This document shows, piece after piece, positions 7,874 through 27,167 of a DNA stretch of 64,000 nucleotides (the stretch's first letter is position 1; each line of letters starts with the position of its first letter). The notes beneath the pieces were generated by a model, which saw only the letters and a list, made by a program, of their open reading frames with translations, was not told where the DNA came from and did not search any database. A program made the position numbers and the translations under genes. Origin of the DNA: Dehalococcoidia bacterium. Lineage in GTDB: Bacteria > Chloroflexota > Dehalococcoidia > UBA2979. The DNA is taken from contig OZ219871.1 in assembly GCA_964291495.2 (NCBI GenBank), positions 1,024,001 to 1,088,000 on the forward strand. Reading direction: 5' to 3'.

Positions 7874-10351
7874 ATGGGCGAGCTCGAAGCGCCGCTGACC
7901 GGCATCCGCGTGCTCGATCTCGGGCAGGCCGCCGTCGGCCCGGTCGCCGCCGAGTACCTTGCGTGGCTCGGCGCGGACGTGATCAAGGTCGAGTCGCCAC
8001 AGGGCGACATGGTGCGCAACACCCGGCCCGAGCTGCGCGGCATGGGCCACACCTTCCTCGGCAACAACCTCGGCAAGCGCGGGATCGTGCTCGACCTCAA
8101 GCAGCCCGAGGAGTTCGCGCGAGGCGAGGACCTGATCCGCACCGCCGACGTGCTGATCGAGAACTTCCGCTCGCCCGCCGTGATGGAGCGGCTGGGCCTC
8201 GGCTGGGAGCGCTTGCAGGAGCTCAACCCGCGCCTCATCTACCTGCAGAGCTCCGCCTTCGGTCCCGTCGGGCCGATGGTCGGCATGACCAGCAACGAGT
8301 GGTTCTCGCAGGCCGCCGGCGGGGCGACCAGCCTCAACGGCCAGTCCGGCGGCCCGCCCGAGTTCTCGCGCGGAACGCCCTCGATCGACTGGAACGGGGC
8401 GGCCGTCAACCTCGAGGCGCTGCTCGTCGGGCTGTGGGTGCGCGAGCGCACCGGCCGAGGGCTGCGCATCCACAACTCGCAGCTGCAGTGCACGATGTTC
8501 GGGGCGACCACGCGGATCGCCGAGTACCTCGCGACCGCCGAGCCGCCGCCGCGGCTCGGCAGCGCGCGCAGCAACATCGTGCCGGACCAGGCGTTCGCCA
8601 CCGCCGAGGGCTACGTGGCGGTGAGCGCGCTCAACCAGCGCCTCTGGACGCGGCTCTGTGGGGCCCTCGAGCGCCCGGACCTCGCCGCCGACCCGCGCTT
8701 CGCGAGCAACGCACTACGCGTCGAGAACCGCGAGGCGCTGATCCCGCTGCTGGAAGCGGCCTTCGCCGAGCGGAGCGCCTCGGAGTGGGTGGAGCGGCTG
8801 CACGCCGCCCGCGTCCCGGCCTCGGAGGTGCTGACCGGGCTGCCGCTGATCGAGGGCCTGCTGGCGCATCCGCAGGCAAGCGGGCAGCGCTTCCTCAGCG
8901 TGATGGACACGCCCTGGGGCGACATGGGCACGGCCGAGCCGCACTGGCGCTTCGACAAGTCCCGCGCGCGCATCACCAGCCCCTCGCCCGCGCAGGGCCA
9001 GCACACCGACGAGGTGCTGCGCGAGCTCGAGGACGAGGTGGCCGCGCTCCCGCCTCCGGCGCCCGTCGCGCGCATCGGCGCGCGCGGCAACGGCGCCACG
9101 GCGGCAAGCGATGACGCCGCGCCCGCCCTCGCGGGCCTGCGCGTGCTCGACCTCTCGCAGGGCGTCTCCGGCCCGATCTGCGCGATGCAGCTCGGCGACC
9201 TCGGCGCGGACGTGATCAAGATCGAGCCGCCCGAGGGCGACTGGATCCGCGAGATCGGCCCATTCCACACTCCGGCAGAGGGCGAGCCGGAAAGCGCGCT
9301 CTACCTGCAACTCAACCGCAACAAGCGCGGCATCGCGCTCGACCTCAAGTCGCCCGAGGGCAGGGCCGTCCTCGAGCGGCTGCTCGACGGCGCCGACGTG
9401 CTGCTCGAGGGCTACCGGCCGGGCGTGATGGAGCGCCTCGGCCTTGGCTACGAGGAGCTCTCGAAGCGCTATCCGCGGCTGATCTACCTCTCGATCAGCG
9501 GACAGGGCGCCGAGGGGCCGCTGGCCGAGGCGCCCGCGAGCGAGCTGGACGTGCAGGCCGTGGTCGGCTCCAACCGGCACCTCGGTCGGGCGAGCGAGCC
9601 GCCGGTCCGCTACGGCTACGACCTCGCCTCGGTGGGAGCCGGCATCGCCGGCGTGCACGGGGTGCTGACGGCGCTGCTCTGGCGCGAGCGGAACGGCCTC
9701 GGGCAGCACGTGCAGACCTCGCTGCTGCAGACCTTCATCGCGATGCACCAGTGGACGATCAGCGCGGAGCTCGCCGTCGAGGATCGCGTCGGCCGCCCCC
9801 TCACCGGCGCCGACGAGGAGCCCGACCACGGCTTCGAGACCGCCGACGGCCACGCGCTGATCACGATGCGTGGCGACGAGGGCGCCTGGGCCAAGTTCCT
9901 GATCGCCATCGACCGCCCCGAGGTGCTCCTCGACCCGCGCTACGAGGCGCCGGACACGCTGATGCGCAACCTGCACCTGCTGCCGCCGCTGGTGAACGAC
10001 CGCACGCGCCAGATCCCCTTCGAGGAGCTGCGCACGCTGGTGCAGGACGAGCTCGGCTACACGATCGTGCGCATGCACGACCTGCGCTCGCTGCTCGCGG
10101 ACGCGCAGACCGAGGCGCTTGGCATGATCCAGACGATCGAGGGCCACCCCACGCTCGGCCCGCTGCGCACGCTCAACGTCCCTTGGGGCTTCGAGGATGG
10201 CCTCGCCTCGCTGCGCCTCCCGCCGCCGCTGCTCGGCCAGCACGGCGCCGAGGTGCTGGCGGAGGCTGGCTACGAGGAGGCGGAGATCGCCCGCCTCGCG
10301 GAGTCGGGCGCGGTGCGCCTCGCGCCTCGGGCGGCGCTCGCCGGGGCGTAG
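7874..10351 (+). CDS. Tandem two-domain family III CoA-transferase
   Basis: Two copies of LxGxRVLDL...LGADVIK(V/I)E(S/P)PxGD...NxxKRGIxLDLK joined by an Ala/Pro linker. Confidence 0.9.
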   Translation: MGELEAPLTGIRVLDLGQAAVGPVAAEYLAWLGADVIKVESPQGDMVRNTRPELRGMGHTFLGNNLGKRGIVLDLKQPEEFARGEDLIRTADVLIENFRSPAVMERLGLGWERLQELNPRLIYLQSSAFGPVGPMVGMTSNEWFSQAAGGATSLNGQSGGPPEFSRGTPSIDWNGAAVNLEALLVGLWVRERTGRGLRIHNSQLQCTMFGATTRIAEYLATAEPPPRLGSARSNIVPDQAFATAEGYVAVSALNQRLWTRLCGALERPDLAADPRFASNALRVENREALIPLLEAAFAERSASEWVERLHAARVPASEVLTGLPLIEGLLAHPQASGQRFLSVMDTPWGDMGTAEPHWRFDKSRARITSPSPAQGQHTDEVLRELEDEVAALPPPAPVARIGARGNGATAASDDAAPALAGLRVLDLSQGVSGPICAMQLGDLGADVIKIEPPEGDWIREIGPFHTPAEGEPESALYLQLNRNKRGIALDLKSPEGRAVLERLLDGADVLLEGYRPGVMERLGLGYEELSKRYPRLIYLSISGQGAEGPLAEAPASELDVQAVVGSNRHLGRASEPPVRYGYDLASVGAGIAGVHGVLTALLWRERNGLGQHVQTSLLQTFIAMHQWTISAELAVEDRVGRPLTGADEEPDHGFETADGHALITMRGDEGAWAKFLIAIDRPEVLLDPRYEAPDTLMRNLHLLPPLVNDRTRQIPFEELRTLVQDELGYTIVRMHDLRSLLADAQTEALGMIQTIEGHPTLGPLRTLNVPWGFEDGLASLRLPPPLLGQHGAEVLAEAGYEEAEIARLAESGAVRLAPRAALAGA

Positions 10352-10661: not shown

Positions 10662-11072
10662 CTAAGCCCGCGCCCGCGGGTCCACGTGGTTGACGCGGTA
10701 GCGAAACTTCCAGCCCTCGGCCGTGCGCACGTAGACGTCGTCGTACCAGCCGGTCGCGAGGATGCGCGCGCGCGACTCGCCGGTGGTCGCGATCGTCACG
10801 AGGAACATCGCCTTGCCGCGCACGCTGCCATCGGCTTCCGGCTCCTGCAGCCGGATGTTGGACACCATGTGCCGCCGTGGCGTTGGCTCCTCGACCCAGC
10901 GGTTGGCGACCAGCTCGCGGATCGCCTCGCGGCCCCGCACCTCGCTGCCGGCGCGGCCGAAGACCGCATCCTCGCTGAAGAGCGCGGCGAAGGTGTCGTG
11001 GTCGGCGCTGTCGAAGGTGTAGCAGTAGTCCGTGATCAGGTCGTGGATCGCCTGCCGGTCCGCGGGGTCCAT
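10662..11072 (-). CDS. SnoaL-like / NTF2 family protein
   Basis: DRQAIHDLITDYCYTFD, LFSEDAVF, GREAI, HMVSN, GWYDDVYVRTAEGWKF; GGAGG upstream of the ATG. Confidence 0.85.
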   Translation of the reverse strand: MDPADRQAIHDLITDYCYTFDSADHDTFAALFSEDAVFGRAGSEVRGREAIRELVANRWVEEPTPRRHMVSNIRLQEPEADGSVRGKAMFLVTIATTGESRARILATGWYDDVYVRTAEGWKFRYRVNHVDPRARA

Positions 11073-11228
11073 CGTCGCCTCCGTTCGCAGCCGCACGCGC
11101 GCGGGCCATCGTAGCGGCCTCGTGCGTCCGATGACGGCCACGGGCTGGCAAGGCCTGTTGCGCGGGAGTAACCTTGGAGTTCGTCACGGGTTCAACAGCG
11201 CACGACCGCACGGGGAGGGAGGCGGACG

Positions 11229-12410
11229 ATGTCGATTCGCGGGAAGGCGGCGATCGTCGGGTTCAGCGAGCTCCCGACGCTGCGCCAGTACGGCGAACGG
11301 AGCACCACGGGCCTCCTCGCCGAGGTCGCCCGGGACGCGATCCGCGACGCCGGAATGCGCAAGGACGACATCGACGGCGTGATCAACCGCGAGGACGTGA
11401 ACTCCCTCGAGCTCTGCGAGGCGCTCGGCATCAGGCCCCGCTATACCTCCTCGATGACCACGCACGGGGCGAGCGGCGCGGCCTCGATCCTGACAGCGGC
11501 GATGGCCGTCGCCTCTGGCGTCGCCAGCAACGTGCTCTGCATGCTCGGCCAGTCGCGGCCGGCCAGCGCGACGCGGCTCGAGGCCGGGGCGGGCGCGCGT
11601 GGCGGCGGCGGCCCGGCCAACATCCTCACGGAGTGGGAGGCGCCGTTCGGCACCGTGATCGCCGCCAACGGCGGCTACGGGATGATCAAGGCGCGCCACA
11701 TGCACGAGTTCGGCACCACGCAGGAGCAGTTCGCCAAGTGCGCCGTCGACCAGCGCTTCAACGCGCTGCGGAACGAGAACGGGCTCTGGAAGGACCCGAT
11801 CACCATCGACGACGTGCTCAACTCGCGCTTCGTCAACGACCCGCTGCACCTGCTGGAGTGCGTGATGCCGTGCTCCGGCGCGAACGCCGTGATCGTCACC
11901 AGCGCGGAACGCGCGAGGGCGTTGCCGAACCCGCCCGTCTACATCCTCGGCGTGGGCGGACCGGCGACCAGCCACAGCGTCGTCTGGCAAAACGACAGCA
12001 TCACCACCACCCCGGTCGTGCAATCCGCCCCGGTGGCGCTGCAGATGGCGGAGTACAGCGCGCGCGACATCGAGTTCGCCCAGTTCTACGACTGCTACAC
12101 GATCCTCGCGATGATGTGCCTGGAGGACGCCGGGATCTGCGCGAAGGGCGAGATCGGGGCCTTCTACGAGAGCACGGACACGACCTACGAGGGCGACTTC
12201 CCGATCAACACCGACGGCGGCCAGATCTCGGCGGGCCAGCCCGGCGGCGGCGCCGGCGGCTTCCGCCACGTGGTGGAGGCGACCCGCCAGATCATGGGCC
12301 GAGCCGGGGTGAGGCAGGTGAAGAAGGGCGACCTCTGCCTTGTCAATGGCTGAGGCGGCACCGGCAGCGTCATGACGACGCTGGTGCTCGGTTCGGGCGC
12401 CACCCTCTAA
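11229..12410 (+). CDS. Thiolase-like protein (SCP2/Ltp2-type) with in-frame TGA at 12351-12353; full length 393 codons if recoded
   Basis: AAIVGFSE, PLHLLECVMPCSGANAVIVTS, FYDCYT, PINTDGGQIS, EATRQIMG. After the TGA the frame continues GGTGSVMTTLVLGSGATL-TAA, the expected final beta strand. Confidence 0.85.
12354..12388 (+). promoter_or_regulatory. Candidate bacterial SECIS-like hairpin immediately 3' of the UGA
   Basis: GCAC(CGG)CAGCGTC-ATGAC-GACGCTG-GTGC; the apical loop starts 18 nt after the UGA. Confidence 0.5.
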
Positions 12411-12443
12411 CTCCAGCAAGCAAAGACCACACCGAGGTCCACG

Positions 12444-12863
12444 ATGGCCGAATACGAGAAGCCTCTCCCGCGACAAGCAGACCCTGCGCTCACACAGCCC
12501 TTCTGGGACGCGGCGAAGCGCCACGAGCTGGTCCTCCCGCGCTGCCTCCAGTGCAGCCGCCACTTCTGGTACCCGCGGCAGGCCTGCCCGCGCTGCCTGA
12601 GCCCGGACTGGGAGTGGACGAAGGCGAGCGGCCGCGGCCGCCTCCACACCTACACGATCGTCCGCCAGCCGCAGAACCCCGCCTTCAACGACGACGTGCC
12701 CTACGCCTACGCGATGGTCCAACTCGACGAGGGCGTACGCATGATCTCGAACCTCGTCGACGTCGAGGTCCCCGACGGCGTGCGGATCGACATGGAACTC
12801 GAGGTGACGTTCGAGGACGTCACCGAGGAGTGGACGCTGCCGCGCTTCCGGCCCGCGTCGTAA
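12444..12863 (+). CDS. DUF35-type Zn-ribbon/OB-fold protein (thiolase partner)
   Basis: PFWDAAKRHELVLPRCLQC, YPRQACPRC, SGRGRLHTYT, VPYAYAMVQLDEGVRMISNL. Confidence 0.92.
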   Translation: MAEYEKPLPRQADPALTQPFWDAAKRHELVLPRCLQCSRHFWYPRQACPRCLSPDWEWTKASGRGRLHTYTIVRQPQNPAFNDDVPYAYAMVQLDEGVRMISNLVDVEVPDGVRIDMELEVTFEDVTEEWTLPRFRPAS

Positions 12864-15305: not shown

Positions 15306-16019
15306 TCAGCCGTAGCGCTGGCGCAGCTCGTCGCGGACGCGCTGCGCCAGCGGCTCGGTCAGCGCGCGCAGATCGCCGGCGAGGCGCGCGCCCTCGAGGA
15401 AGGCGTCGAGGGTGGCGATCGTCTCGAGGCCGCGCGTGCGGGCGTGTTCCTCGTTGGTCGCGCGGAAGCCCTGCAGCTTGCGCGGGCCCTCGCGGCCGCC
15501 CTCGGAGATGTACCAGTCGCGGAACGCCACGCCGCAGCCGAGGTCGAAGAGCAGCGCGCCGAGCGGCGTGGCGACGGGCGGCACGTCGGCCGCCAGCGCG
15601 CGCGCCGTGCTCGCCCGCGGGCGCGAGTCGTACTCCGCCATCAGGTGCCCGCCCGCCGGGACGAGGCCCGCGAGCTGCCCGAACAACGCCCGCTCGACCT
15701 CGGGCGATACGGGCTGCACGCCTCCGGCGGCGAGCGGCGGCGCGTCCGTGTAGTCGAGCACCTCGATCCAGTTGAAGCCGGGAAACGGCCCGGAGTTCTG
15801 CAGCCCGAAGATCACGGGCGCGGACGTCGGGCCCTCGGGGCCGTCGAGGATGCAGCGGAAGTAGGTCGAGCCGACGGAGCTGCGCGGCCCGAGCAGCACG
15901 ACGAGCCGCAGCCCCCCGACGAGCGAGGCGCCGTCGATGGGCGCGAGCGGGTGTTCGGGACGCTCGGACGCGGGCTGCCAGCGCCCGTCGGCGGGGTCGC
16001 CTCGCGGTGTCGTGGTCAT
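15306..16019 (-). CDS. DUF1122 family protein
   Basis: NWIEV, GGHLMAEYDS, TPLGALL, FRDWYISEGGREGPRKLQG. Confidence 0.8.
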   Translation of the reverse strand: MTTTPRGDPADGRWQPASERPEHPLAPIDGASLVGGLRLVVLLGPRSSVGSTYFRCILDGPEGPTSAPVIFGLQNSGPFPGFNWIEVLDYTDAPPLAAGGVQPVSPEVERALFGQLAGLVPAGGHLMAEYDSRPRASTARALAADVPPVATPLGALLFDLGCGVAFRDWYISEGGREGPRKLQGFRATNEEHARTRGLETIATLDAFLEGARLAGDLRALTEPLAQRVRDELRQRYG

Positions 16020-16099
16020 GCCCGCGACGCTAGCACGGGCGGTCGGGGTGGGCGAGCGCGGCAGTCCGCCCCAAACGGGCGAAGGGCTATCCTCGCACC

Positions 16100-17476
16100 A
16101 TGACCACCACCCCGCCCGGCGACCTCCCGGACGACGCCACCCTCGCGGCCTACGCCGAGGCCGTGCGCGGCCTGCTCGCGCGCGGCGGCTACGAGCGCAG
16201 CGGCGATCCACGCGAGGCGAAGCGCTTCCGCCTGAGCCACATCGAGGCGTTCCTCGAGGCCGCCGGACGCCCGGACCGGCGGCGCACCGTCCACATCGCC
16301 GGCTCAAAGGGCAAGGGCTCGACCGCGGCGCTGGTCGAGGCGCAGCTGCGCGCCGCCGGCGCGCACACCCTGCTGCTCACCTCGCCCGATCTGCACCAGG
16401 CCCGCGAGCGCGTGCGCATCGACGGCGAACCGCTCGGCCACGCCGCCTTCGCCCGCCTCGCGCGGGCGTTGCTGGACGACGCGGCGACCGAGGGCTGGTC
16501 CTACTTCGAGCTGCTGACCGTGCTCGGCTGGCTCGCGGGCGCGGAGGCCGGCTGCGACTGGCAGGTGCTGGAGGTCGGCCTCGGCGGGCGGCTGGACACG
16601 ACGAACGTCGTCGCCGCCTCGAAGGCGGTCGCCGTGATCACCCCGCTCGACCTCGAGCACACGGCGATCCTCGGCGACACGATCGAGCAGATCGCGGCGG
16701 AGAAGGCGGCGATCATCCGCGCGCCCGGCGCCGCCGTCGCCGCGCCGCTGCGCGAGCGCGCGCTCGACGTGGTGCGCGCGCGGGCATCCGAGGTGGGCGC
16801 GACGCTGCACGAGGTGGCGGCCGAGTGCGCGCTGCGGGTGACCGCGCAGGGTCTCGACGGGCAGACGCTGGACCTGCGCACGCCGCTGCGCACCTACCGG
16901 CGGCTGCGGCTGCCGCTGATCGGCCGCCACCAGGCGGAGAACGCGGCGACAGCCGTGCGCGCGGCGGAACTGGCGTGGGACGCCGCCGGAGGCGAGCTGC
17001 CCGAGGCGGCCGTGCGCGACGGTCTCGCCTCGGTGCGTTGGCCCGGACGCTTCGAGGTGCTGCGCCAGCGCCCGCTGGTGGTGCTGGACGCGCTGCACAC
17101 GCCGCTCGCGGCGGAGCGGTTCCGGGAGACCCTGCGCGAGCTGCCGCTGCCCCATCCGCATGTGCTGGTGGCTGGCCTGCTCGCCGGCCGCGACGTGCCG
17201 TTGCTGGCCGCGCCGCTGCTCACCGGCGGCGAGACCGTGATCGTCGCCCCGCCGTCCTCGGAGCGGGCGGCCGATCCCTCGCAGGTCGCCGCCGCCTTCG
17301 CCGCGGCGGGCGCGGTCGTGCAGCAGCAGCCGAACGTCGCGGCCGCCCTCGCTCTGGCGCGCGCGCTGGCCGGCGAGGGGGGCGCCGTCTTCGTCGTCGG
17401 CAGCCTCTACACCGTCTCCGAGGCACGCGAACAGCTCCTCGGTGTGAGCGGGGACCGCGCACTCGGGTTGCGCTAG
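16100..17476 (+). CDS. folC: Folylpolyglutamate synthase/dihydrofolate synthase
   Basis: HIAGSKGKGST, SYFE, LEVGLGGRLDTTNV, EHTAILG, HQAENA, WPGRFE, GSLY. Confidence 0.92.
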   Translation: MTTTPPGDLPDDATLAAYAEAVRGLLARGGYERSGDPREAKRFRLSHIEAFLEAAGRPDRRRTVHIAGSKGKGSTAALVEAQLRAAGAHTLLLTSPDLHQARERVRIDGEPLGHAAFARLARALLDDAATEGWSYFELLTVLGWLAGAEAGCDWQVLEVGLGGRLDTTNVVAASKAVAVITPLDLEHTAILGDTIEQIAAEKAAIIRAPGAAVAAPLRERALDVVRARASEVGATLHEVAAECALRVTAQGLDGQTLDLRTPLRTYRRLRLPLIGRHQAENAATAVRAAELAWDAAGGELPEAAVRDGLASVRWPGRFEVLRQRPLVVLDALHTPLAAERFRETLRELPLPHPHVLVAGLLAGRDVPLLAAPLLTGGETVIVAPPSSERAADPSQVAAAFAAAGAVVQQQPNVAAALALARALAGEGGAVFVVGSLYTVSEAREQLLGVSGDRALGLR

Positions 17477-17514
17477 ACTGTGGCCCGGTAATCGGTCACG
17501 TCGATGGAGGCCGG

Positions 17515-18777
17515 ATGACGCAACGCAATGGCAGGGATCGCCGCGTTGTCGTGACCGGCATGGGCGTGATCTCTCCCCTCGGCAGCACCGTCGACGAGCT
17601 GTGGGAACGCGCGCTCAACGGCGAGTCCGGCATCACCGCGCTGACGGCGATCGAGCCCGGCGACTACCCCTGCAAGGTCGCCGGGCAGGTGCATGACTTC
17701 GAGCCCAACGAGTGGATGGACCGCAAGGACGCGCGCCGCATGGCGCGCTTCTCGCAGTTCGCGATCGCCGCCGGCAGGCAGGCGATTGCCGACGCCGGAC
17801 TGGACCTCGAGGCAATCGACCGCCACCGTGCCGGGGCGCTGCTCGGCACCGGCAACGGCAGCCTGCCGCACGCCGACCAGGCGATGCGCACGATCCTCAG
17901 CCGCGGCGGGCACCGCCTCGACCCGCTCTATATGGCGAAGATGCTGCCGAACATGGCCGCCGGAAACCTCACCATCCAGCTCGGCCTGCGCGGCTACACC
18001 AACACCGTGACCACCGCCTGCGCGGCCGCCACCCAGGCGATCGGCGACGCGACCGAGGTGATCCGCCGCGGCCACGCCGACGTGATGCTGGCCGGGGGCA
18101 CCGAGGCCGGCATCTCCGAGCTGGGACTCGCCGGGTTCTGCGCGATGCGCGCCCTCACCACCTCCTACAACGACCGCCCCGGCGAGTCGTCACGCCCCTT
18201 CGATCGCGACCGCGACGGCTTCGCCCCCTCGGAGGGCGCGGGGGTGCTGGTGCTCGAGGAGCTCGAGCACGCCCGCGAGCGCGGCGCAGAGCCCCTCGCC
18301 GAGGTGGCCGGATACGGCGTCACCGCGGACGCGACCTTCCTCGTCGCGCCGCCCGAGGACGGCGGCGGCGCCGCGCGCGCCATCCAACTCGCCATCGAGG
18401 ACGCGGGCATCACCCCGGGTGAGGTCGACTACATCTCCGCCCACGCCACGGCGACCGAGGTCGGCGACATCGCGGAGACGCGGGCGATTCGCTCGGTCTT
18501 CCGCGAGGACGCGGATCGCATCCCCGTGACCGCGTTCAAGTCCCAGATCGGCCACCTGCTCGGGGCCGCGGGCGGCGTCGAGGCGGTGGCGGCCGTCCAG
18601 ACGCTGCGCACCTCGACGATCGCGCCGACCATCAACCTCGAGAACCCCGATCCCGAGTGCGACCTCGACTACGTCCCGCTCCAGCCGCGCGGCGCCGATG
18701 TGCGCACCCTCGCCAAGAACTCCTTCGGCTTCGGCGGCCAGAACGCCGTGCTGATCCTGCGCCGCTTCGAGGACTGA
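17515..18777 (+). CDS. fabF: 3-oxoacyl-ACP synthase II
   Basis: RRVVVTGMG, TTACAA (Cys), HATAT, KSQIGHLLGAAG, NSFGFGG; ATG 17515 after GGAGG. Confidence 0.95.
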   Translation: MTQRNGRDRRVVVTGMGVISPLGSTVDELWERALNGESGITALTAIEPGDYPCKVAGQVHDFEPNEWMDRKDARRMARFSQFAIAAGRQAIADAGLDLEAIDRHRAGALLGTGNGSLPHADQAMRTILSRGGHRLDPLYMAKMLPNMAAGNLTIQLGLRGYTNTVTTACAAATQAIGDATEVIRRGHADVMLAGGTEAGISELGLAGFCAMRALTTSYNDRPGESSRPFDRDRDGFAPSEGAGVLVLEELEHARERGAEPLAEVAGYGVTADATFLVAPPEDGGGAARAIQLAIEDAGITPGEVDYISAHATATEVGDIAETRAIRSVFREDADRIPVTAFKSQIGHLLGAAGGVEAVAAVQTLRTSTIAPTINLENPDPECDLDYVPLQPRGADVRTLAKNSFGFGGQNAVLILRRFED

Positions 18778-18908
18778 GCCGCCCCCGCCGCCCGGCCCGC
18801 GCCACCGCACCGCTGGTATGATGGTTGCGGCGGGGCGCCGGTCGTGGCGCCCCGTTGGCGTGCGCGCCGCGCAATCCTCCCCACGGATCGGGCCGGCGGA
18901 TCGGGCCT

Positions 18909-20897
18909 ATGGGCACCTGGGTCGGACGCTACGCCATCGTCGGCGGCGAGGTTCGCGAGGACGGACCTTGGCTCGCCGAGCAACTGCGCTTCAGCGACGA
19001 GGAGCGCGTCCATCTCTTCGTGCTCGCCGATCCCGCGGACGAGCGTTCCGCCGACTTCTGCCAGGAGGTCGCCAGCGCCGTCGCCGACCTGTTCGCGGCG
19101 GAGTCGCTGTCGCTGACCGGCGGGCTGCTGCGCGCGCTGCGCCAGGCGCACCGCAACCTGGCCGAGTGGAACAGCCGCTCGCTGCGCGAGCACCGCGTCT
19201 CGATCGGCGTCACCTGCCTGGCTGTGCGCGGCGACAGCGCGACCGTCGCCCAGGCCGGCCCCGGCGTCGTCTACGTCGCTGCTCCCGACGGCGTGCGCCG
19301 CATCACCTCCGAGGGCGCCGACGCCGCGCAGCCCCTCGGGGGAGTCGACCGGCTTGAGCCGCTGTTCACGGGGATGCCGCTCGAACAGACGAAGATCCTG
19401 GTGCTCAGCAGCGCCGCCGAGGAGGCGGCCGGGTCCGCGGCGATCAGCCAGGCGCTGGAAGGGGATCCGGACCGCGCCCTCGCCGAGGTCTTCCGCCTGA
19501 CCCGGGAGGTGGACGACATGACGGCGGTGCTGATCGCCGACGTGCCCGACGCCGCGACCGAACCCGCCCCCGTGGAGATCGATTTCCCGGACCGCGAGGC
19601 TCCCCCTGACGACCAGGGAGCAGCCGTCGCCGAACCTCCGGCGCCGATCATCACCTCGCCGGCTCCGCAGCCGGCGTCCGGCAGACGGCGCTTGCCGCGC
19701 CTGCGCCGCCCCCGACTGGCCGGCGCGCCGCGCAACCGGCGGCGCTGGCTGATCGCCGGGCTGCTGGTAGTCGCCGCGCTGCTCGCCTCGGCCGCCACGT
19801 ACTACCTGCCGCCGCTGTTCGAGAGCGATCCGCAGGCCGAGGTCGAAGAGCGGCTCAGCGCCGCCAACGCCTTCCTCGATGCGGCTGCCGAGAACGACGA
19901 CATCGCGTGGCAGCGCCAGCACTTCCAGGCGGCGCTCGCCGAGCTTGAGCAGGCGCGAGCGGCCGGCACCGAGGATCCGCGCATCAATGAGCTCCAGGCC
20001 GGCGTGCAGCAGCGCCTGGACGACCTCAACGGCGTCGTCGAGGTCGGCGATCTGCGGCGCATCCTGCAGTTCGCCGGATCGCTGAGCGCGCCCCTCACTC
20101 CGGCGAATCTCGTCCTCGGCGGCGACTGGCTGTGGCTGCTCGACGGCGATCGCGGGCGTGTCTTCGCGATCGATCCCGCGGGCCAGGAGCCGTCGCTCGA
20201 GGCGTACCGCGCGGGGGTGCGCTACGGCGCCGCCATCGCCGCGCGTCCCAGCGTCATCGCCTGGGACGAGGTGGCCGCCCGGCTGCTGCTGATCGACGAG
20301 TCGCGCAGGCTGTTCGACCTCGTGCCCGGGGAGCTGCCCACTGCCCTGCCGCTGCGCGACGCCGACGAACTGGGGACGATCGACTCCATCGCCGCCTACG
20401 AGGGCAACCTCTACGTCCTCGACACGCTCGGCGCCGAGGTCTGGCGCTACCGCCCGGTCGACGACGGCTTCGACACGGAGCGCACCGGCCTGATCGGCGG
20501 AACGCTGCCCGGCGCGGCGGGCGGCGCGCCGCACGAGGGCGCGCTGCGGCTGATCGTCGACGGCGATCTTCACCTGCTCGTCGGGGACACCGTCCGCCGC
20601 TTCAGCCTCGGCCGGCAACTGGGCCCGCTGCTGGAGGGCATCGATCGGCCGCTCAACACGCCGGTCGGCATCGCCCGCGATTCTGCCGACGGCGTCCTCT
20701 ACGTCGCCGACCGCGGCAACCGCCGCATCGTGGTGAGCGGCGACGATGGTGCGTTCCTGCGCCAGTTCGTGCACCCCACTCTGCTCGACATCCGCGCGCT
20801 CGCACTCTCCCCGGACGGCGCCACGATCTACATCCTCACCGGCACGAGCATCGAGGCCTTCGATCCCGCGGCGAACCTGCAGCCGGAGGCGGAGTGA
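18909..20897 (+). CDS. Membrane protein: PP2C-like N-domain, single TM, NHL/beta-propeller C-domain
   Basis: ALRQAHRNL...GVTCLAVRGDSATVAQAGP (PP2C-like, degenerate); TM WLIAGLLVVAALLA; YEGNLYVLD and LYVADRGNRRIV repeats. Confidence 0.7.
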   Translation: MGTWVGRYAIVGGEVREDGPWLAEQLRFSDEERVHLFVLADPADERSADFCQEVASAVADLFAAESLSLTGGLLRALRQAHRNLAEWNSRSLREHRVSIGVTCLAVRGDSATVAQAGPGVVYVAAPDGVRRITSEGADAAQPLGGVDRLEPLFTGMPLEQTKILVLSSAAEEAAGSAAISQALEGDPDRALAEVFRLTREVDDMTAVLIADVPDAATEPAPVEIDFPDREAPPDDQGAAVAEPPAPIITSPAPQPASGRRRLPRLRRPRLAGAPRNRRRWLIAGLLVVAALLASAATYYLPPLFESDPQAEVEERLSAANAFLDAAAENDDIAWQRQHFQAALAELEQARAAGTEDPRINELQAGVQQRLDDLNGVVEVGDLRRILQFAGSLSAPLTPANLVLGGDWLWLLDGDRGRVFAIDPAGQEPSLEAYRAGVRYGAAIAARPSVIAWDEVAARLLLIDESRRLFDLVPGELPTALPLRDADELGTIDSIAAYEGNLYVLDTLGAEVWRYRPVDDGFDTERTGLIGGTLPGAAGGAPHEGALRLIVDGDLHLLVGDTVRRFSLGRQLGPLLEGIDRPLNTPVGIARDSADGVLYVADRGNRRIVVSGDDGAFLRQFVHPTLLDIRALALSPDGATIYILTGTSIEAFDPAANLQPEAE

Positions 20898-21959: not shown

Positions 21960-22283
21960 CACCCGCCCTCGATCCGGCCCCCTCTCCCTGGGGAGAGGGC
22001 GGGGGTGAGGGGGCTCGTCGGCCTGGCTCCCGGCTTGATCGGTTGTTGCGCCCTCCGGGGCCCTTCGAGGGGCCCTCGAAGCGTTCGTTGCCCCTCGGGG
22101 CTTCGGTGCGCGCCTGCTGGCCGTGCTGGCGCGGCTGGATTCCGGCTTTCGCCGGAATGACGGGAACGGGCGCGGAATGAGGGAAGGGCGGACCCGGAAT
22201 GACGGAGGCGACGGAGCCGAGGGGTGTGGGGGCACAGCCCCCACGAAGCGGGGGCGCAGCCCCGCATCCATCGAGGGCGGGTG
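21960..22283. repeat. Composite palindromic element bounded by a 14-bp inverted repeat (MITE-like)
   Basis: CACCCGCCCTCGAT (21960-21973) / ATCGAGGGCGGGTG (22270-22283); contains both modules of the 6.8-kb repeat. Confidence 0.75.
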
Positions 22284-22347
22284 GGTGGGGAGAGGGAGCC
22301 GGATCCGGCCTCGGTGGGGCCGACGGCGTGAAGGGCGGGAAGGCGCG

Positions 22348-23637
22348 CTACGTGAGCGGGGTGCAGACCAGGTCGTAGGGGAGGGCGGTGTCGACGCGCA
22401 CGCGGACGAACTCGCCCGAGGCGTACTCGCCGCGCACGAAGGCGAGGCCGTCCACCTCCGGGGCGTCGCGGTAGCTGCGGCCGACGACGAAGCGCGAGCC
22501 GTCCTCCTGCTCGCTCGGCTCGTCCGACTCGATCAGCACCTCCAACTCGCTGCCGACCAGCTCGCGGTTGCGCTCGATCGAGATCTGCTGCGCCAGCTCC
22601 ATGAGGCGGCCGTAGCGCTCCGCCGCGACCTCGTGCGGCACGGCCTCGCCGAGGTCCGCCGCGGGCGTGCCGGTCTGCGGCGAGTAGGTGAACGCCCCGA
22701 CGTGGTCGAAGCGCTGCTCCTCGACGAAGTCGAGCAGCTCCTCGAACTCCTCCTCCGTCTCGCCGGGGAAGCCGACGATGAAGGTGGTGCGCAGCGCGGC
22801 CTCGGGCATCGCCTCGCGCAGCGTCTCCAGGCTGCGGCGGGCGACGCGCAGGCTCGGTCGCCGCATCCGCCGCAGCACGCTCGGCGATCCGTGCTGCAGC
22901 GGCATGTCGAGGTAGGGCGTGACGTTCGGCAGCCGCGCCATCGTCTCCGCGAGCCGGGGCGTGACGCGCCCGGGGTAGGCGTACATCAGCCGCAGCCAGC
23001 GCACCTCCGGGACCGCCTCGGCAAGCCGCTCCAGCAGCTCGGCCAGGCCGTCGCGCTGCGCGCGGTCCTCGCCGTAGGCGGTCGAGTCCTGCGCGACCAG
23101 CACCAGCTCGCGCACGCCCGAGGCTGCCAGCGCCCGCGCCTCCGCGATCAGCCAGTCCTCCGGCTCCGAGTGCATGCGGCCCTTGATCGTCGGGATGATG
23201 CAGAACGTGCACGGCCGGTCGCAGCCGTCCGAAATCTTGAGGTAGGCGCTCGGCCCCGTTGCCAGCAGCGCCGGCTGCGGGATGTCGAAGTCCGCCGAGC
23301 CCGAGCCAAGCGAGGCTGCGACGGCGTCCCAGGCCTCGACGCCGAACGTGGCGTCGACGGCCGGTACGGCGCGCCGCACCTCCGCCTCGGCGATCTGCGT
23401 GAGGCAGCCGAGCACGTAGAGCTGCTGGTCGGGCCGCCGCTCGGCATCCAACTCGGCGATCACCTCGAGCGACTCGTCCTTCGCGTCGTCGATGAAGCCG
23501 CAGGTGTTGACGAGCAGCAGCTCGGCCTCGTGTGCGGACGCCATCGCCTGGTGCCGGGCGTGGCGCAGCGCGCGCTCGAGCCGCATCGAGTCGACGGTGT
23601 TCTTGGCGCAGCCGAGCGTGACGAGGTGGTAGCGCAC
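22348..23637 (-). CDS. rimO: Ribosomal protein S12 methylthiotransferase
   Basis: LGCAKNTVDS, VNTCGFIDDAKDES, YLKISDGCDRPCTFC, LMYAYP, APEVDG, TRAM domain. Confidence 0.93.
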   Translation of the reverse strand: MRYHLVTLGCAKNTVDSMRLERALRHARHQAMASAHEAELLLVNTCGFIDDAKDESLEVIAELDAERRPDQQLYVLGCLTQIAEAEVRRAVPAVDATFGVEAWDAVAASLGSGSADFDIPQPALLATGPSAYLKISDGCDRPCTFCIIPTIKGRMHSEPEDWLIAEARALAASGVRELVLVAQDSTAYGEDRAQRDGLAELLERLAEAVPEVRWLRLMYAYPGRVTPRLAETMARLPNVTPYLDMPLQHGSPSVLRRMRRPSLRVARRSLETLREAMPEAALRTTFIVGFPGETEEEFEELLDFVEEQRFDHVGAFTYSPQTGTPAADLGEAVPHEVAAERYGRLMELAQQISIERNRELVGSELEVLIESDEPSEQEDGSRFVVGRSYRDAPEVDGLAFVRGEYASGEFVRVRVDTALPYDLVCTPLT

Positions 23638-23646
23638 GCGGGCGGC

Positions 23647-24399
23647 CTACTCGGGTTCCCTGGCCACCACCAGCGTGACCCCCTGCCCTGCCGCCAGCAC
23701 CTCGCCCGGCGCCGGTGTCTGGGCGAAGACGTGACCGGGCTCGGCCTCGCTGCTCTCGACCTCGACCACCAGCGCCGTGGTGCCGAGTTCGAGTACCCGC
23801 TGCTCCGCCTCGGCCTTCGTGAGGCCGCTGAGGTCCGGCATCTCCTCCGCGAGCGGCGTCGCCGTGCTCTCTGCGGTGGGGGCCACCGACCCTTCGCCAT
23901 TGGTCCCATCGTCGGAGCCGCCGAATCCGATGTTGGGCACGCCGAAGATAAACGCCGCGACGAGGACGATCGCCGCCGCGGCCGCAAGCAGGATCCAGCG
24001 CCGGCTGATGGCGGGCAGCACGCCCACGCCCTCGCGCAGCCGCAGGCCGGGCAGCGGATCGAGACCCGGCGGCTCCGGCAGGTTGTCAGGCAATCGCTCG
24101 ACCGCGTCCTCGGGATCGATGCCGAGGAAGCGGGCATAGAGACGAACGAAGCCGCGCACGTAGACGGGCGCGGGCAGCACGTCGAAGCGATCGGCCTCGA
24201 TCGCGTCGAGGTAGCCGTAGCTGATGCGCGTCTCCTCGGCGGCCTGATCGAGCTCAAAGCCGGCGGCGAGCCGGTGCTCGCGCAGCCAGCTGCCGAGGGT
24301 GTTCGGCAGGGCGCCGGTTTCGGGGCCGGGCGCGTTCGCTTCCTCGCCGTCCAGCGACGCGTTCCTGTCAGAGCGGCGGAACAACCCGCGCAACACCAC
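23647..24399 (-). CDS. RodZ-like HTH, TM and PASTA domain protein
   Basis: LGSWLREHR..ETRISYGYLDAIEADRFDVLPAPVYVRGFVRLYARFLG; C-terminal MPDLSGLTKAEAE...GHVFAQTPAPG...VTLVV. Confidence 0.85.
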   Translation of the reverse strand: MVLRGLFRRSDRNASLDGEEANAPGPETGALPNTLGSWLREHRLAAGFELDQAAEETRISYGYLDAIEADRFDVLPAPVYVRGFVRLYARFLGIDPEDAVERLPDNLPEPPGLDPLPGLRLREGVGVLPAISRRWILLAAAAAIVLVAAFIFGVPNIGFGGSDDGTNGEGSVAPTAESTATPLAEEMPDLSGLTKAEAEQRVLELGTTALVVEVESSEAEPGHVFAQTPAPGEVLAAGQGVTLVVAREPE

Positions 24400-25445
24400 T
24401 ACGCGCCATCGACGCCCGGGAACTCCACGAGCGACTTCAGCCCCTCCATCGCCAGCCTCGAGGCGTAGGCCTGCGGGGCGTGCTCGATCCCGTAGCGGTT
24501 TGTCACGACCTCATCGATGTGTGCGACGTGGGGGAGCAGCGCCACCGTGCGGCGGTACTGGTCGCTGGTGGCGTTCTGCGAGCCGGTCAGGATCACCTCC
24601 CCGTAGTGCACGAGGTTCGGGTCGAACGGCACGTCCTCGCCCGGCGGGAAGCCGGCGAAGAGGTTGACCACGCCCTGCGGCCGCACGAGCTCCAGCGCGG
24701 GTCCCACGAGGGCGGAGACGCCCACGGAGAGCACCACGCCGTCGGCGCCCGCGCCGCCGGTCGCATCACGTACGGCCCCGGTCACGTCATCGGTGGCGGG
24801 GTCGAGCACGAGGTCCGCGCCCCAGCGCGCCGCGATCGCGCGCCGCTCGGCGAGCGGCTCGCTCACGATGATCGGCGCGGCCCCGGCCGCGCGGGCGAGC
24901 AGCACGTGCAGCAGCCCCATCGGCCCCGCGCCGATGATCGCGAGCGAGCTGCCGATACCGGTGGCGCACAGCTCGAGCGAGGCGGTGACGCAGGCAGCCG
25001 GCTCGGTCAGCGCGGCCACGTCCAGCGGCAGCTGGTCCGGCGCGCCGATCACCTGTCCGCGCCCCACGATCTCGGCGGGCACCAGCAGCGACTCGGCGAA
25101 GCCGCCGTCGATGTCGTAGCCGAGCGTCCGGCGGTTGGTGCAGCGGTTGCGCTTCCCGGTCTGACAGAAGCGGCAGCGTCCGCAGGAGACGATCGGGCAG
25201 ATCACCACGCGGTCGCCCTCGGCGACGTCCGCGACGCCCTCGCCGACCTGGTCGACGACGCCGGCGATCTCGTGGCCGGGGATGACGCCGGGGCGGGCGT
25301 GCTTCTCACCCTTGTAGACTCGCACGTCCGAGGCGCAGAGAGAGGAGGCGGCCGTGCGCAGCCGCACCTCGCCGGGCCCGGCTTGCGGGGTGGGGCGGTC
25401 CTGGACGGAGATCTTGCCGGGCTCTTCGAAGATCGTCGCGCGCAT
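24399..25445 (-). CDS. Zn-dependent (MDR) alcohol/polyol dehydrogenase
   Basis: CASD, GHEIAG, CGRCRFC..C, GAGPMG. Confidence 0.9.
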   Translation of the reverse strand: MRATIFEEPGKISVQDRPTPQAGPGEVRLRTAASSLCASDVRVYKGEKHARPGVIPGHEIAGVVDQVGEGVADVAEGDRVVICPIVSCGRCRFCQTGKRNRCTNRRTLGYDIDGGFAESLLVPAEIVGRGQVIGAPDQLPLDVAALTEPAACVTASLELCATGIGSSLAIIGAGPMGLLHVLLARAAGAAPIIVSEPLAERRAIAARWGADLVLDPATDDVTGAVRDATGGAGADGVVLSVGVSALVGPALELVRPQGVVNLFAGFPPGEDVPFDPNLVHYGEVILTGSQNATSDQYRRTVALLPHVAHIDEVVTNRYGIEHAPQAYASRLAMEGLKSLVEFPGVDGA

Positions 25446-25523
25446 CGAGTGTCCCGGTTCCTCACTGTCGCCGTCGGGCCGCGGGCCTGTGCCTCGCAGT
25501 ATCGCAGCGTGCGGCGAGGGCTG

Positions 25524-27167
25524 CTACTCGCCGCCGCCGCGCAGCCCCGCCAGCCACTGCACGCCCGCGTGGTACTCGCGGCTCCCGAGCACTGCCGCGG
25601 CCGCGAGGAAGGCGAACAGCCCCCCGAGGCCGCAGGCCGCCGTCAGCACAAGCGAGCCGAGCAGCTCCTTCGGATCCGCCCCCGCCGCGCGCAGCAGGAT
25701 CAGCAGCAGGATCAGCGTCAGCACCATCACCAACGTCGCCAGCAGCGTGTGCCCCGCCGAGACCGCGAGCGCCGAGGCGTCGAACCCCTCGAGGCGGCCG
25801 CGCAGCGCCCGGAGCAGCAGCAGCAGCTCCACGATCGCTGCGACGGAGGCCGCCGCCGCCAGTCCGCGAATGCCGAGCGGCTCCACCAGGGCGGCGCAGA
25901 GCACGACGTTGATCACCATCCCGACCAGCGCGAACGTGACCGGCGTGCGCGTATCGGACAGCGCGTAGAAGCCGCGGCTGAGGATCTCGATTGCCGCGTG
26001 CGCCCAGACCGCGACCGCGTAGATCGTGAGCGCCTCGACGACGAGGTTTGTGGAGGCCGCGTCGAAGGCGCCGCGCTGCAGCAGCAGCCGCACCGCCGGC
26101 TGGGCGAGCAGGATGAGTCCAGCCGAGGCGGGGATCGCGAGGAAGAGGATCATCCGCAGCGTCGCGTCGAGCGAGCGGCGGAGGCTCGCGATGTCCTCGC
26201 GCGCGGCCTGCTGCGAGAGCTGCGGGAAGGCCGCCGTCGAGATCGCCATCCCGATCACGCCCACCGGCAGCAGCATCACGAGGAAGGCGAAGTTGATCGC
26301 GCTGATCGCCTCGTCCGAGATGAACGAGGCGAAGAAGATCACCACCACCAGGTTGACCTGCGCGGCCGCCAGCCCTACCACGCGCGGCCCCATCAGGCGC
26401 AGCACCTCGCGCACCCCCGCCGAGGCGACATCGACCGCGGGCCGCCAGCGCATGCCGACGGCGCGCAGCGCGGGCAACTGCACCAGCAGGTGCCCGCTCG
26501 CTCCGATCACCACGCCCCAGGCGAGGCCGTGCACGCCCCAGCGCTCCGCCAGCACCACCGCCCCGAAGATGATCCCGAGGTTGTAGAGGGAGGGCGCGAT
26601 CGCCGGAGCGAGGAAGTGCTGCCGCGCGTTGAGGATGCCGGTCAGCATGCCGGAGATGCCGAACAGCAGCGGCGAGATCAGCATCAGCCGCGTCAGCTCG
26701 ACGGCGAGCGCCTGCAACTCGGCCTCGCGCCCGCTCGCCTCGCCCAGTCCGGGCGCGAGCAGCGGGACGATCAGCGGCGCGAGCACAAAGCCGATCGCCG
26801 CGGCGACGAAGGTGGCGAGGGCGATCAGGTTGAGCACGCTCGAGGCGAGCCACCAGCCCTCGTCCTCGCTCTCGCGCAGCACGACGCGGCTGAAGGTGGG
26901 GATGAAGGCGGCGGAGAGGGTGGCGCCGGCGAGCAGCTGGAAGATCGCGTCGGGCACCCGGAAGGCGACCCAGTAGGCCCCCAACTCGGGCTCGGTGCCG
27001 AAGGCGTCGGCGATCGCGACCGAGCGCAGCAGCCCGAGCAGCCTCGAGGCGATGAAGCCGCCAGCGACGATCCCGGCCGCTCCGGCGGCGGTTCGCGGCG
27101 TCAGTCCCCGGCGCAGGATCCGGAGCAGTCGATGCACGAGCCCGGCCGCGGGCGGCGATGAGGCCAT
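25524..27167 (-). CDS. murJ: Lipid II flippase MurJ/MviN
   Basis: SRLLGLLR, AFRVPD, AFIPTF, RGFYALSDTRTP. Confidence 0.9.
   Translation of the reverse strand: MASSPPAAGLVHRLLRILRRGLTPRTAAGAAGIVAGGFIASRLLGLLRSVAIADAFGTEPELGAYWVAFRVPDAIFQLLAGATLSAAFIPTFSRVVLRESEDEGWWLASSVLNLIALATFVAAAIGFVLAPLIVPLLAPGLGEASGREAELQALAVELTRLMLISPLLFGISGMLTGILNARQHFLAPAIAPSLYNLGIIFGAVVLAERWGVHGLAWGVVIGASGHLLVQLPALRAVGMRWRPAVDVASAGVREVLRLMGPRVVGLAAAQVNLVVVIFFASFISDEAISAINFAFLVMLLPVGVIGMAISTAAFPQLSQQAAREDIASLRRSLDATLRMILFLAIPASAGLILLAQPAVRLLLQRGAFDAASTNLVVEALTIYAVAVWAHAAIEILSRGFYALSDTRTPVTFALVGMVINVVLCAALVEPLGIRGLAAAASVAAIVELLLLLRALRGRLEGFDASALAVSAGHTLLATLVMVLTLILLLILLRAAGADPKELLGSLVLTAACGLGGLFAFLAAAAVLGSREYHAGVQWLAGLRGGGE

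Follow-up and report, generated by a model that had tools for sequence, protein, structure and literature searches.

In a 64,000-nt stretch of a Dehalococcoidia bacterium genome (assembly GCA_964291495.2, contig OZ219871.1, positions 1,024,001 to 1,088,000, forward strand; hereafter the window), we find a thiolase-fold gene at 11229-12410 that runs through an in-frame TGA codon and very probably encodes a 393-residue selenoprotein. As far as can be judged from sequence, the UGA at 12351-12353 would be decoded as selenocysteine (Sec) by SelA, SelB, SelD and tRNA-Sec, with one or both of two RNA hairpins 3′ of it probably helping. An earlier note, made from the letters of the window alone, had proposed Sec at this codon, and the conservation of the TGA, the coding character of the tail behind it and the presence of sel genes and tRNA-Sec in the genome all support that proposal. 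The overall explanation that we favor, and consider probable, is that the protein is a Sec-containing aldolase resembling CtSal, in which Sec375 may serve as a second active-site chalcogen. It would act in complex with the DUF35 protein encoded by the adjacent gene. The parts of this locus, in window positions, are as follows.

11214-11222, + strand: Shine-Dalgarno-like purine run, 6 nt ahead of the ATG, read off the sequence
11229-12350, + strand: codons 1-374 of the thiolase-fold (Sal/Ltp2-like) gene, with Gly80, Tyr287/Cys289 (YDCY) and Gln332/Gln337
12351-12353, + strand: in-frame TGA, codon 375, with a predicted Sec reading based on conservation of TGA at this codon and on the Sec machinery in the genome
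12354-12410, + strand: tail of 18 sense codons and TAA, forming a turn and the last beta strand (residues 381-388 of the model), from Pfam, codon statistics and AlphaFold2
12358-12387, + strand: hairpin 1, candidate selenocysteine insertion sequence (SECIS) element, with core stem 12365-12371/12377-12383 and loop 12372-12376, and compensatory changes in alignment A2
12384-12400, + strand: hairpin 2, second SECIS candidate, a 7-bp stem that includes two G-U pairs and closes a 3-nt loop, strong where a clade forms hairpin 1 poorly
12444-12863, + strand: DUF35 partner gene, 139 aa, Cys4 zinc ribbon and OB fold (Pfam)

An in-frame TGA shared by related genes

We searched 151 genomes of the class for read-through homologs; 30 loci were returned, and 17 of the genomes, the source genome included, contain homologs with an internal TGA. 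The TGA lies at exactly codon 375 in 17 gene copies, at 16 of the 30 loci, and the remaining copies comprise 13 more distant ones (below ~50% identity) with Asn at the site and one cut by a contig end. In a species-wide pattern scan that used one genome per species, 309 relatives were confirmed among 317 matching stretches. The best 80 of these were examined, and TGA occupies the same codon in 75, Asn in two, and three end before the site, with TGA retained down to 55% identity; the loci come from related genomes, i.e. they are not independent samples. The carriers are labeled as Dehalococcoidia, SAR202 or Chloroflexota metagenome-assembled genomes, with one Actinomycetota label.

Protein databases treat the codon as a stop. 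Of the 120 best matches, 106 stop at the Sec codon; ten others cover the full length and four are fragments, and the entries of the family in nr are shortened ‘thiolase family protein’ records. The conservation that the earlier note had looked to homologs for is seen in dozens of independent genomes, as well as in these shortened records. The ten full-length close homologs carry Asn (six), Cys (two), Ser (one) or Val (one) at position 375, so that Cys, the other residue anticipated there, does occur, in a few homologs only. As gene callers and the NCBI pipeline truncate the family, Dehalococcoidia and SAR202 proteomes, and metabolic reconstructions, carry systematically broken models of it.

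The earlier note had cautioned that TGG or TGC might have been miscalled as TGA. We observed the same TGA in seven orthologs of 92-97% identity from other assemblies (L051-L057), and sequencing error is effectively excluded because the same TGA stands at the same codon across other genomes. Additionally, contigs (Logan) from three runs in three studies cover the TGA site. Over 11925-12863, no difference is seen in the run that is the likely source, and 12351-12353 is not among the differences listed for the other two. Together with the retention of TGA to 55% identity, these data leave a negligible chance that the codon reflects a sequencing or assembly error or a pseudogene in this stretch. 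Such an error would fit with another sequence error that the earlier note suspected elsewhere in the window, and with the ortholog at L087:2501-3680 (93% identity), whose frame is shifted around residue 130 and interrupted by a further stop around residue 166. This ortholog, one of the 75 loci with the TGA, still has the Sec-TGA and the tail; the copy may be decaying, or the damage may be an error of long-read assembly. One metatranscriptome run yielded short contigs at 11406-11584 and 12772-12863 only, none of them over the UGA, and these are not proof of transcription.

The source genome itself contains 34 Thiolase_C_1 matches and about 29 DUF35 matches, and three of the 34 Thiolase_C_1 genes have an internal TGA. 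Three paralogs were inspected (G000:C5:687274-688416, C5:178843-179997 and C5:712051-713187): two, of 70% and 44% identity, also carry TGA at codon 375, and the third is a close Asn form with Pro at the motif Cys.

The tail behaves as coding sequence

The called open reading frame (ORF) at 11229-12353 has 374 codons and ends at the TGA, and the same frame stays open to the TAA at 12408-12410, giving 393 codons; re-reading the coordinates gave the same values as the earlier note. Across 83 distinct sequences, the 18 codons after the TGA have entropies of 0.60, 0.49 and 1.24 bits at the three codon positions, compared with 0.76, 0.48 and 1.25 bits for the 10 codons ahead of it. The synonymous share of differing codon pairs is 53% in frame 0 vs 9% and 4% in the other frames, and the next in-frame stop lies exactly 19 codons past the TGA in 92 of 93 copies. 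The downstream codons are thus conserved and behave as coding sequence.

The predicted fold agrees. The Pfam profile Thiolase_C_1 aligns to read-through residues 245-388 (profile positions 2-143 of 144) and spans the TGA. An AlphaFold2 model built on 32 read-through homologs, with U entered as C (predicted local distance difference test 89.5, predicted template modeling score 0.90), forms its last two strands from residues 369-376 and 381-388. Since residues 381-388 make up the last strand, a stop at 374 would delete a core strand, as had been argued earlier from general knowledge of thiolase folds. NCBIfam returned generic PRK-type thiolase/lipid-transfer models only, all under the cut-off (best PRK06158, 289.5 vs 421 bits), and the release searched holds no dedicated model for the read-through protein. 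TGA is the normal terminator in several homologs, and 31 of the 34 Thiolase_C_1 genes of the source genome lack an internal TGA, indicating that TGA is not a general sense codon here.

The source genome encodes the Sec pathway

The source genome (3.08 Mb, 8 contigs) encodes SelA (425 bits), SelB (302 bits, above the cut-off) and SelD (368 bits), and a tRNA-Sec (77 bits) that ARAGORN calls as tRNA-SeC with anticodon TCA, so that the complete machinery on which the Sec proposal depends is present. The SelD gene (G000:C5:1608812-1609747, − strand, L048) has an in-frame TGA of its own and thus encodes a Sec-containing selenophosphate synthetase. In the class-wide sample, SelA was found in 101 of 151 genomes; among the 17 that have TGA forms it is present in 15, and the other two (71% and 95% complete) have SelB above the cut-off.

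Candidate SECIS hairpins and a second in-frame TGA

The segment 12351-12395 folds at −24.6 kcal/mol (ViennaRNA, z = −3.61), and 0 of 200 shuffles were as stable. The G+C-rich hairpin that the earlier note had described, with its loop 18 nt past the UGA, is located at 12358-12387, in a minimum free energy register slightly off the one drawn there. In 79 distinct Sec-form sequences, we observed two adjacent hairpins. The first spans about +16 to +33, its 5-nt loop occupying +22 to +26, and the second spans about +34 to +51. At −9 kcal/mol or better, hairpin 1 is found in 49 of these sequences, hairpin 2 in 49, both in 23 and neither in four, giving at least one such hairpin in 75 of 79. The two are complementary: in the clade where hairpin 1 is weak, hairpin 2 is a perfect stem of 7 bp, and the two-Sec clade described below shows the reverse.

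In alignment A2, of 67 distinct sequences, four of the seven base pairs in the hairpin 1 core helix show changes on both sides (28 cells), and 0 of 500 shuffles reached either its observed pairing or its covariation score. Some of the compensations are synonymous on both sides, at Val/Thr third positions and, in L076, at Ser/Thr third positions. Hairpin 1 is lost in the close Asn-form paralogs L084 and L085 (−0.5 and −2.4 kcal/mol). One fixed helix for all clades was tried and rejected: it pairs 72% of cells, and slides of −2, +2 and +3 still pair about 50%. Because a single helix misfits some clades, we describe two alternative hairpins and not one SECIS model. An invariant 5-bp long-range pairing of the UGA region with a downstream Leu-Gly codon pair, the sole helix returned by RNAalifold, was set aside as it shows no covariation. 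We rate a SECIS role of one or both hairpins as likely.

A second predicted Sec site lies at residue 289, where the Cys of the YDCY motif is also encoded by TGA in 22 distinct two-Sec proteins that form almost a single clade. Past this second TGA, 18 of 20 distinct Sec forms have a hairpin whose 5-nt loop lies at +22 to +26, vs 26 of 77 Cys forms at an equal threshold. Database proteins cut right after ‘YD’ (~289 residues) are shortened two-Sec forms (P0090; four of 150 representatives of the wider family), and Cys stands at 289 in 57 of the 150 representatives and in most close homologs. At L012/L099, two two-Sec paralogs lie head to tail on one contig, about 80 nt apart, with no DUF35 gene between them.

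These observations bear on the possibility that the UGA is read through by other means, as near-cognate Trp or Cys or by a suppressor, or that it truly terminates translation to give a 374-residue product. This is very improbable. That no curated SECIS model matches the region would be expected under it, but the tail is under coding selection, has a fixed length and provides the last strand of the fold, every TGA-form genome has Sec-specific genes while also using TGA as an ordinary stop, and hairpins follow both TGA sites.

A predicted active site related to that of CtSal

By both sequence and fold, the best solved relative is the CtSal-ShyDUF35 aldolase (PDB 9myr; 249 bits, template modeling score 0.89, 37% identity), followed by 4u4e (a putative thiolase) and the Ltp2-ChsH2 DUF35 complex (6ok1), with true thiolases ranking lower. 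The CtSal study (PMC12329534) describes Tyr302 and Cys304 of this Comamonas testosteroni enzyme, an aldolase of bile-acid side chains, within a YDCY motif, as experimentally essential; Gly89 stands in for the thiolase nucleophile, Gln347 and Gln352 may stabilize the thiolate, and the oxyanion hole consists of Gln161 and the Gly391 backbone. Mapped onto the 9myr chain with a 24-residue tag offset, Tyr302, Cys304, Gly89, Gln347, Gln352 and Gly391 align with Tyr287, Cys289, Gly80, Gln332, Gln337 and Gly377, respectively. Gly80 and Gly377 are invariant in alignment A3, and in the wider family Gly is found at 80 in 128 and Tyr at 287 in 133 of the 150 representatives. Sec375 lies at the end of the penultimate strand, opposite CtSal Thr389 and two residues ahead of the oxyanion-hole glycine (Gly377).

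The absence of a nucleophilic Cys reported in the earlier note is confirmed, with Gly80 in an xGASG context, YDCY at 287-290 and GQP at 336-338. Gly80 occupies the position of the thiolase nucleophile and Gln337 that of the GHP His, and by these residues the predicted protein is not a true thiolase but a member of the Sal/Ltp2-like, nucleophile-less branch of that superfamily. The description ‘thiolase-like enzyme’ in the earlier note holds for the fold, with the refinement that the nearest relatives in sequence and fold are the Sal/Ltp2 aldolases. Similarly, its placement of a selenol in the catalytic loop stands as to position, but position 375 is not a conserved catalytic Cys, as Asn, Thr and many other residues are found there.

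By analogy with CtSal, retro-aldol C-C cleavage of a 3-hydroxyacyl-CoA would be the most likely reaction, at about an even chance, with Tyr287 acting as base and Cys289 (Sec in the subclade) protonating the enolate. Tentatively, Sec375 would be a second active-site chalcogen alongside Cys/Sec289, forming with it either a proton relay or a transient Se-S couple.

Coupling between positions 375 and 289

Every one of the 87 distinct Sec375 proteins has a chalcogen at 289 (Cys in 65, Sec in 22). Only three Cys375 proteins were seen (P0063, P0073 and P0134), and these have Gly, Gly and Ala at 289. In a FastTree phylogeny that covers 116 distinct proteins and takes the most distant Asn forms as an arbitrary root, Asn is found in the basal lineages, and a well-supported clade of 101 rows is mostly Sec with nested Asn, Ser, Cys and Val forms. 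These patterns in the aligned residues suggest that the chalcogens at 375 and 289 are functionally linked, one being able to substitute for the other. In classical and SCP2-type thiolases, the acid/base Cys is supplied from these two loops, respectively, and given the pairing of Sec375 with Cys/Sec289 and the occurrence of Cys375 without Cys289, substitution between the two positions would parallel that arrangement.

The same pairing can be read in two further ways. One is that the protein is a seleno-thiolase, i.e. a thiolase rebuilt on an aldolase scaffold, in which the role of nucleophile has moved to Sec375, a 3-ketoacyl-CoA yields an acyl-enzyme bound to it as a selenoester, and Cys289 takes the acid/base part that it has in SCP2-type thiolases. 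Sec is better suited to act as a nucleophile than as an acid/base, and all 87 Sec375 forms possess the two-chalcogen set that thiolases need; the three Cys375 forms without Cys289 likewise point to functional interaction of the two positions, and the Sec375 loop adjoins the oxyanion-hole glycine in the alignment with CtSal (PMC12329534). We nevertheless consider this improbable, as the GHP His is Gln and the HDCF motif opens with Tyr, as in aldolases, and close relatives that have Asn, Ser or Val at 375 differ little elsewhere, implying that the scaffold works without a nucleophile there.

The other is a redox switch, in which a non-catalytic Sec375 would form a reversible selenenylsulfide with residue 289 (a diselenide in two-Sec forms) that turns off or protects the catalytic Cys under oxidation. 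Active-site disulfide switches are known in clostridial thiolases, and such a role would account for the strict co-occurrence of Sec375 with Cys/Sec289, for the variability of 375 in non-Sec relatives, as expected of a non-essential add-on, and for carriers whose records give oxic marine, sponge and groundwater samples as their origin. We regard it as unlikely, since bearing the cost of Sec across a whole clade for regulation alone would be unusual, and since a second Sec at the catalytic residue itself suggests a catalytic benefit. A Sec-containing Sal-like aldolase, with Sec375 as a possible second chalcogen of the active site, stays our preferred explanation.

Observations that weigh against the preferred explanation

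A number of observations, concerning both the RNA and the protein, do not favor a Sec-containing Sal-like aldolase with SECIS hairpins. On the RNA side, an Rfam scan of 12250-12500 with E up to 10 gave no match, and RNAalifold on the 67 distinct sequences gave neither hairpin as a consensus, so that the covariation anticipated in the earlier note is supported by compensatory changes beyond those of shuffles but not by a consensus fold. In 17 of these 67 sequences, a weaker helix in a shifted register takes the place of the hairpin 1 core. The loop G of the conserved core helix lies at position 3, whereas the published bacterial SECIS model has it at position 1-2. Distant Asn forms also fold hairpin 1 (mean −6.2 vs −9.1 kcal/mol in Sec forms), three of them at −10 kcal/mol or better, and the potential to fold therefore stems partly from the codons of conserved residues.

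On the protein side, position 375 is variable across the 150 representatives (Asn 28, Thr 15, Gln 11, Val, Ser and Ile 9 each, others, and Cys 1), and Cys is present in just two of the ten full-length close homologs. Selenoproteins usually have abundant Cys homologs, and their rarity at 375 means that the chemistry of Sec375 is not obvious. The tree requires at least 10 changes between Sec and non-Sec, and a change from Sec to Asn takes three base changes. The oxyanion-hole Gln161 of CtSal aligns with Ala146 here. Finally, the loop of Sec375 is, we assume from the motif, the one that holds the second catalytic Cys of classical thiolases. An exact correspondence of the two residues was not borne out by hhalign against a classical thiolase of the same genome (probability 83%, low confidence). 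It sets Sec375 opposite the third Gly of Cys-x-Gly-Gly-Gly and Cys370 opposite the classical Cys, and for this reason the equation of Sec375 with the classical second catalytic Cys stays our inference and not a result.

Neighborhood of the gene

The thiolase-like gene and the DUF35 gene form a two-gene unit. As the earlier note had stated, the next ORF (12444-12863) belongs to DUF35, matching both halves of the family (zf-ChsH2 and OB_ChsH2_C in Pfam), and a DUF35 homolog adjoins the thiolase-like gene in 102 of 110 loci. Other neighbors vary, with a family-III CoA-transferase in ~22-28 of the 110 loci, a major facilitator superfamily transporter in 15 and an enoyl-CoA hydratase in 13; as neighbors beyond DUF35 are not conserved, no substrate can be deduced from the context.

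The earlier note had also placed the pair inside an acyl-CoA catabolic cluster, which holds only in part. A CoA-transferase does lie upstream, but a SnoaL-like gene intervenes and a fructose-1,6-bisphosphatase gene lies downstream. The CoA-transferase (7874-10351, + strand) is a fused double family-III enzyme, an 825-aa ORF with two complete tandem domains (612 bits, 2 stretches). The SnoaL-like (NTF2-fold) gene (10662-11141, − strand) is divergent and begins 88 nt from the start of the Sec gene, with which it shares a promoter region. Farther downstream, a 946-aa ORF at 15937-18777 (+ strand) has a beta-ketoacyl synthase (ketoacyl-synt N and C) in its C-terminal half, with no Pfam match in its N-terminal ~530 residues. 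The ORFs at 18825-20897, 22123-24468 and 24480-27161 (+ strand) have no Pfam match at 1e-5, and the true genes there probably lie in other frames or on the other strand.

Discussion

Literature searches of main texts returned no Sec-containing thiolase-fold protein. No thiolase-type entry appears in the family table of a 2022 review (PMC9312934), nor in the passages covered of the GOS, deep-Sep and BSepDB papers (PMC2398784, PMC12013277 and PMC13326102) and of PMC5109826. It is doubtful, on balance, that the family is already listed somewhere in the literature. A thiolase of Clostridium kluyveri was reportedly found in the 1980s to contain selenium, as selenomethionine and not as Sec. The nearest entry in theme is a crotonase/enoyl-CoA hydratase selenoprotein family in the table of the 2022 review (PMC9312934), meaning that another enzyme acting on CoA thioesters has already been predicted to contain Sec.

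The most far-reaching interpretation, to which we assign a low likelihood, is that these proteins are the first selenoenzymes in the thiolase superfamily and use Sec for C-C bond chemistry and not for redox, with Sec375 as a selenoester nucleophile and Sec as the acid/base in the two-Sec subclade. Under that interpretation, selenium would be a nutritional need for part of the acyl-CoA catabolism of SAR202/Dehalococcoidia in the ocean and in sponges. More generally, Sec in a thiolase/aldolase fold would extend selenium biochemistry to C-C cleavage of CoA thioesters, and our findings suggest that these bacteria, which are abundant, depend on selenium to break down organic acids. The family also offers a natural experiment, comparing Cys with Sec at the essential catalytic Cys of Sal-type enzymes, and Sec with Asn, Ser and Cys in the adjacent loop.

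Among known systems, CtSal (PDB 9myr; PMC12329534) is the closest counterpart, sharing the Gly at the nucleophile position, the Tyr and Cys of YDCY, both Gln residues, the loop Gly and a DUF35 partner. It differs in having Thr where the protein described here has Sec, and is not a selenoprotein; its Gln161 is replaced by Ala here, and no steroid pathway is evident around our gene. In Shy, the DUF35 domain that partners CtSal is joined to a MaoC hydratase and its zinc site is of the Cys3His type, whereas the partner here is a separate 139-aa protein with four Cys. The steroid aldolase Ltp2-ChsH2(DUF35) of Thermomonospora curvata (6ok1) likewise has a thiolase fold that lacks the nucleophile Cys, pairs with DUF35 and keeps the first motif Tyr. 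It is only 30% identical, however, its motif reads YDHF, and its second catalytic Tyr, Tyr344, is replaced by Gln both here and in CtSal (PMC12329534). Classical and SCP2-type thiolases share the fold and the C-terminal Gly-rich loop, and the Cys of the SCP2 HDCF motif corresponds to Cys289; they are distinguished by the residues found here as Gly80, as Gln in place of the GHP His, and as Tyr in place of the HDCF His. With known bacterial selenoprotein families, as represented in the 2022 review (PMC9312934), the gene has in common an in-frame UGA followed by a 3′ hairpin, a Sec machinery, truncation of the ORF by gene callers, and a Sec/Cys pair at a second site. Those families are mostly redox enzymes with abundant Cys homologs, whereas the commonest replacement of Sec375 in the family described here is Asn.

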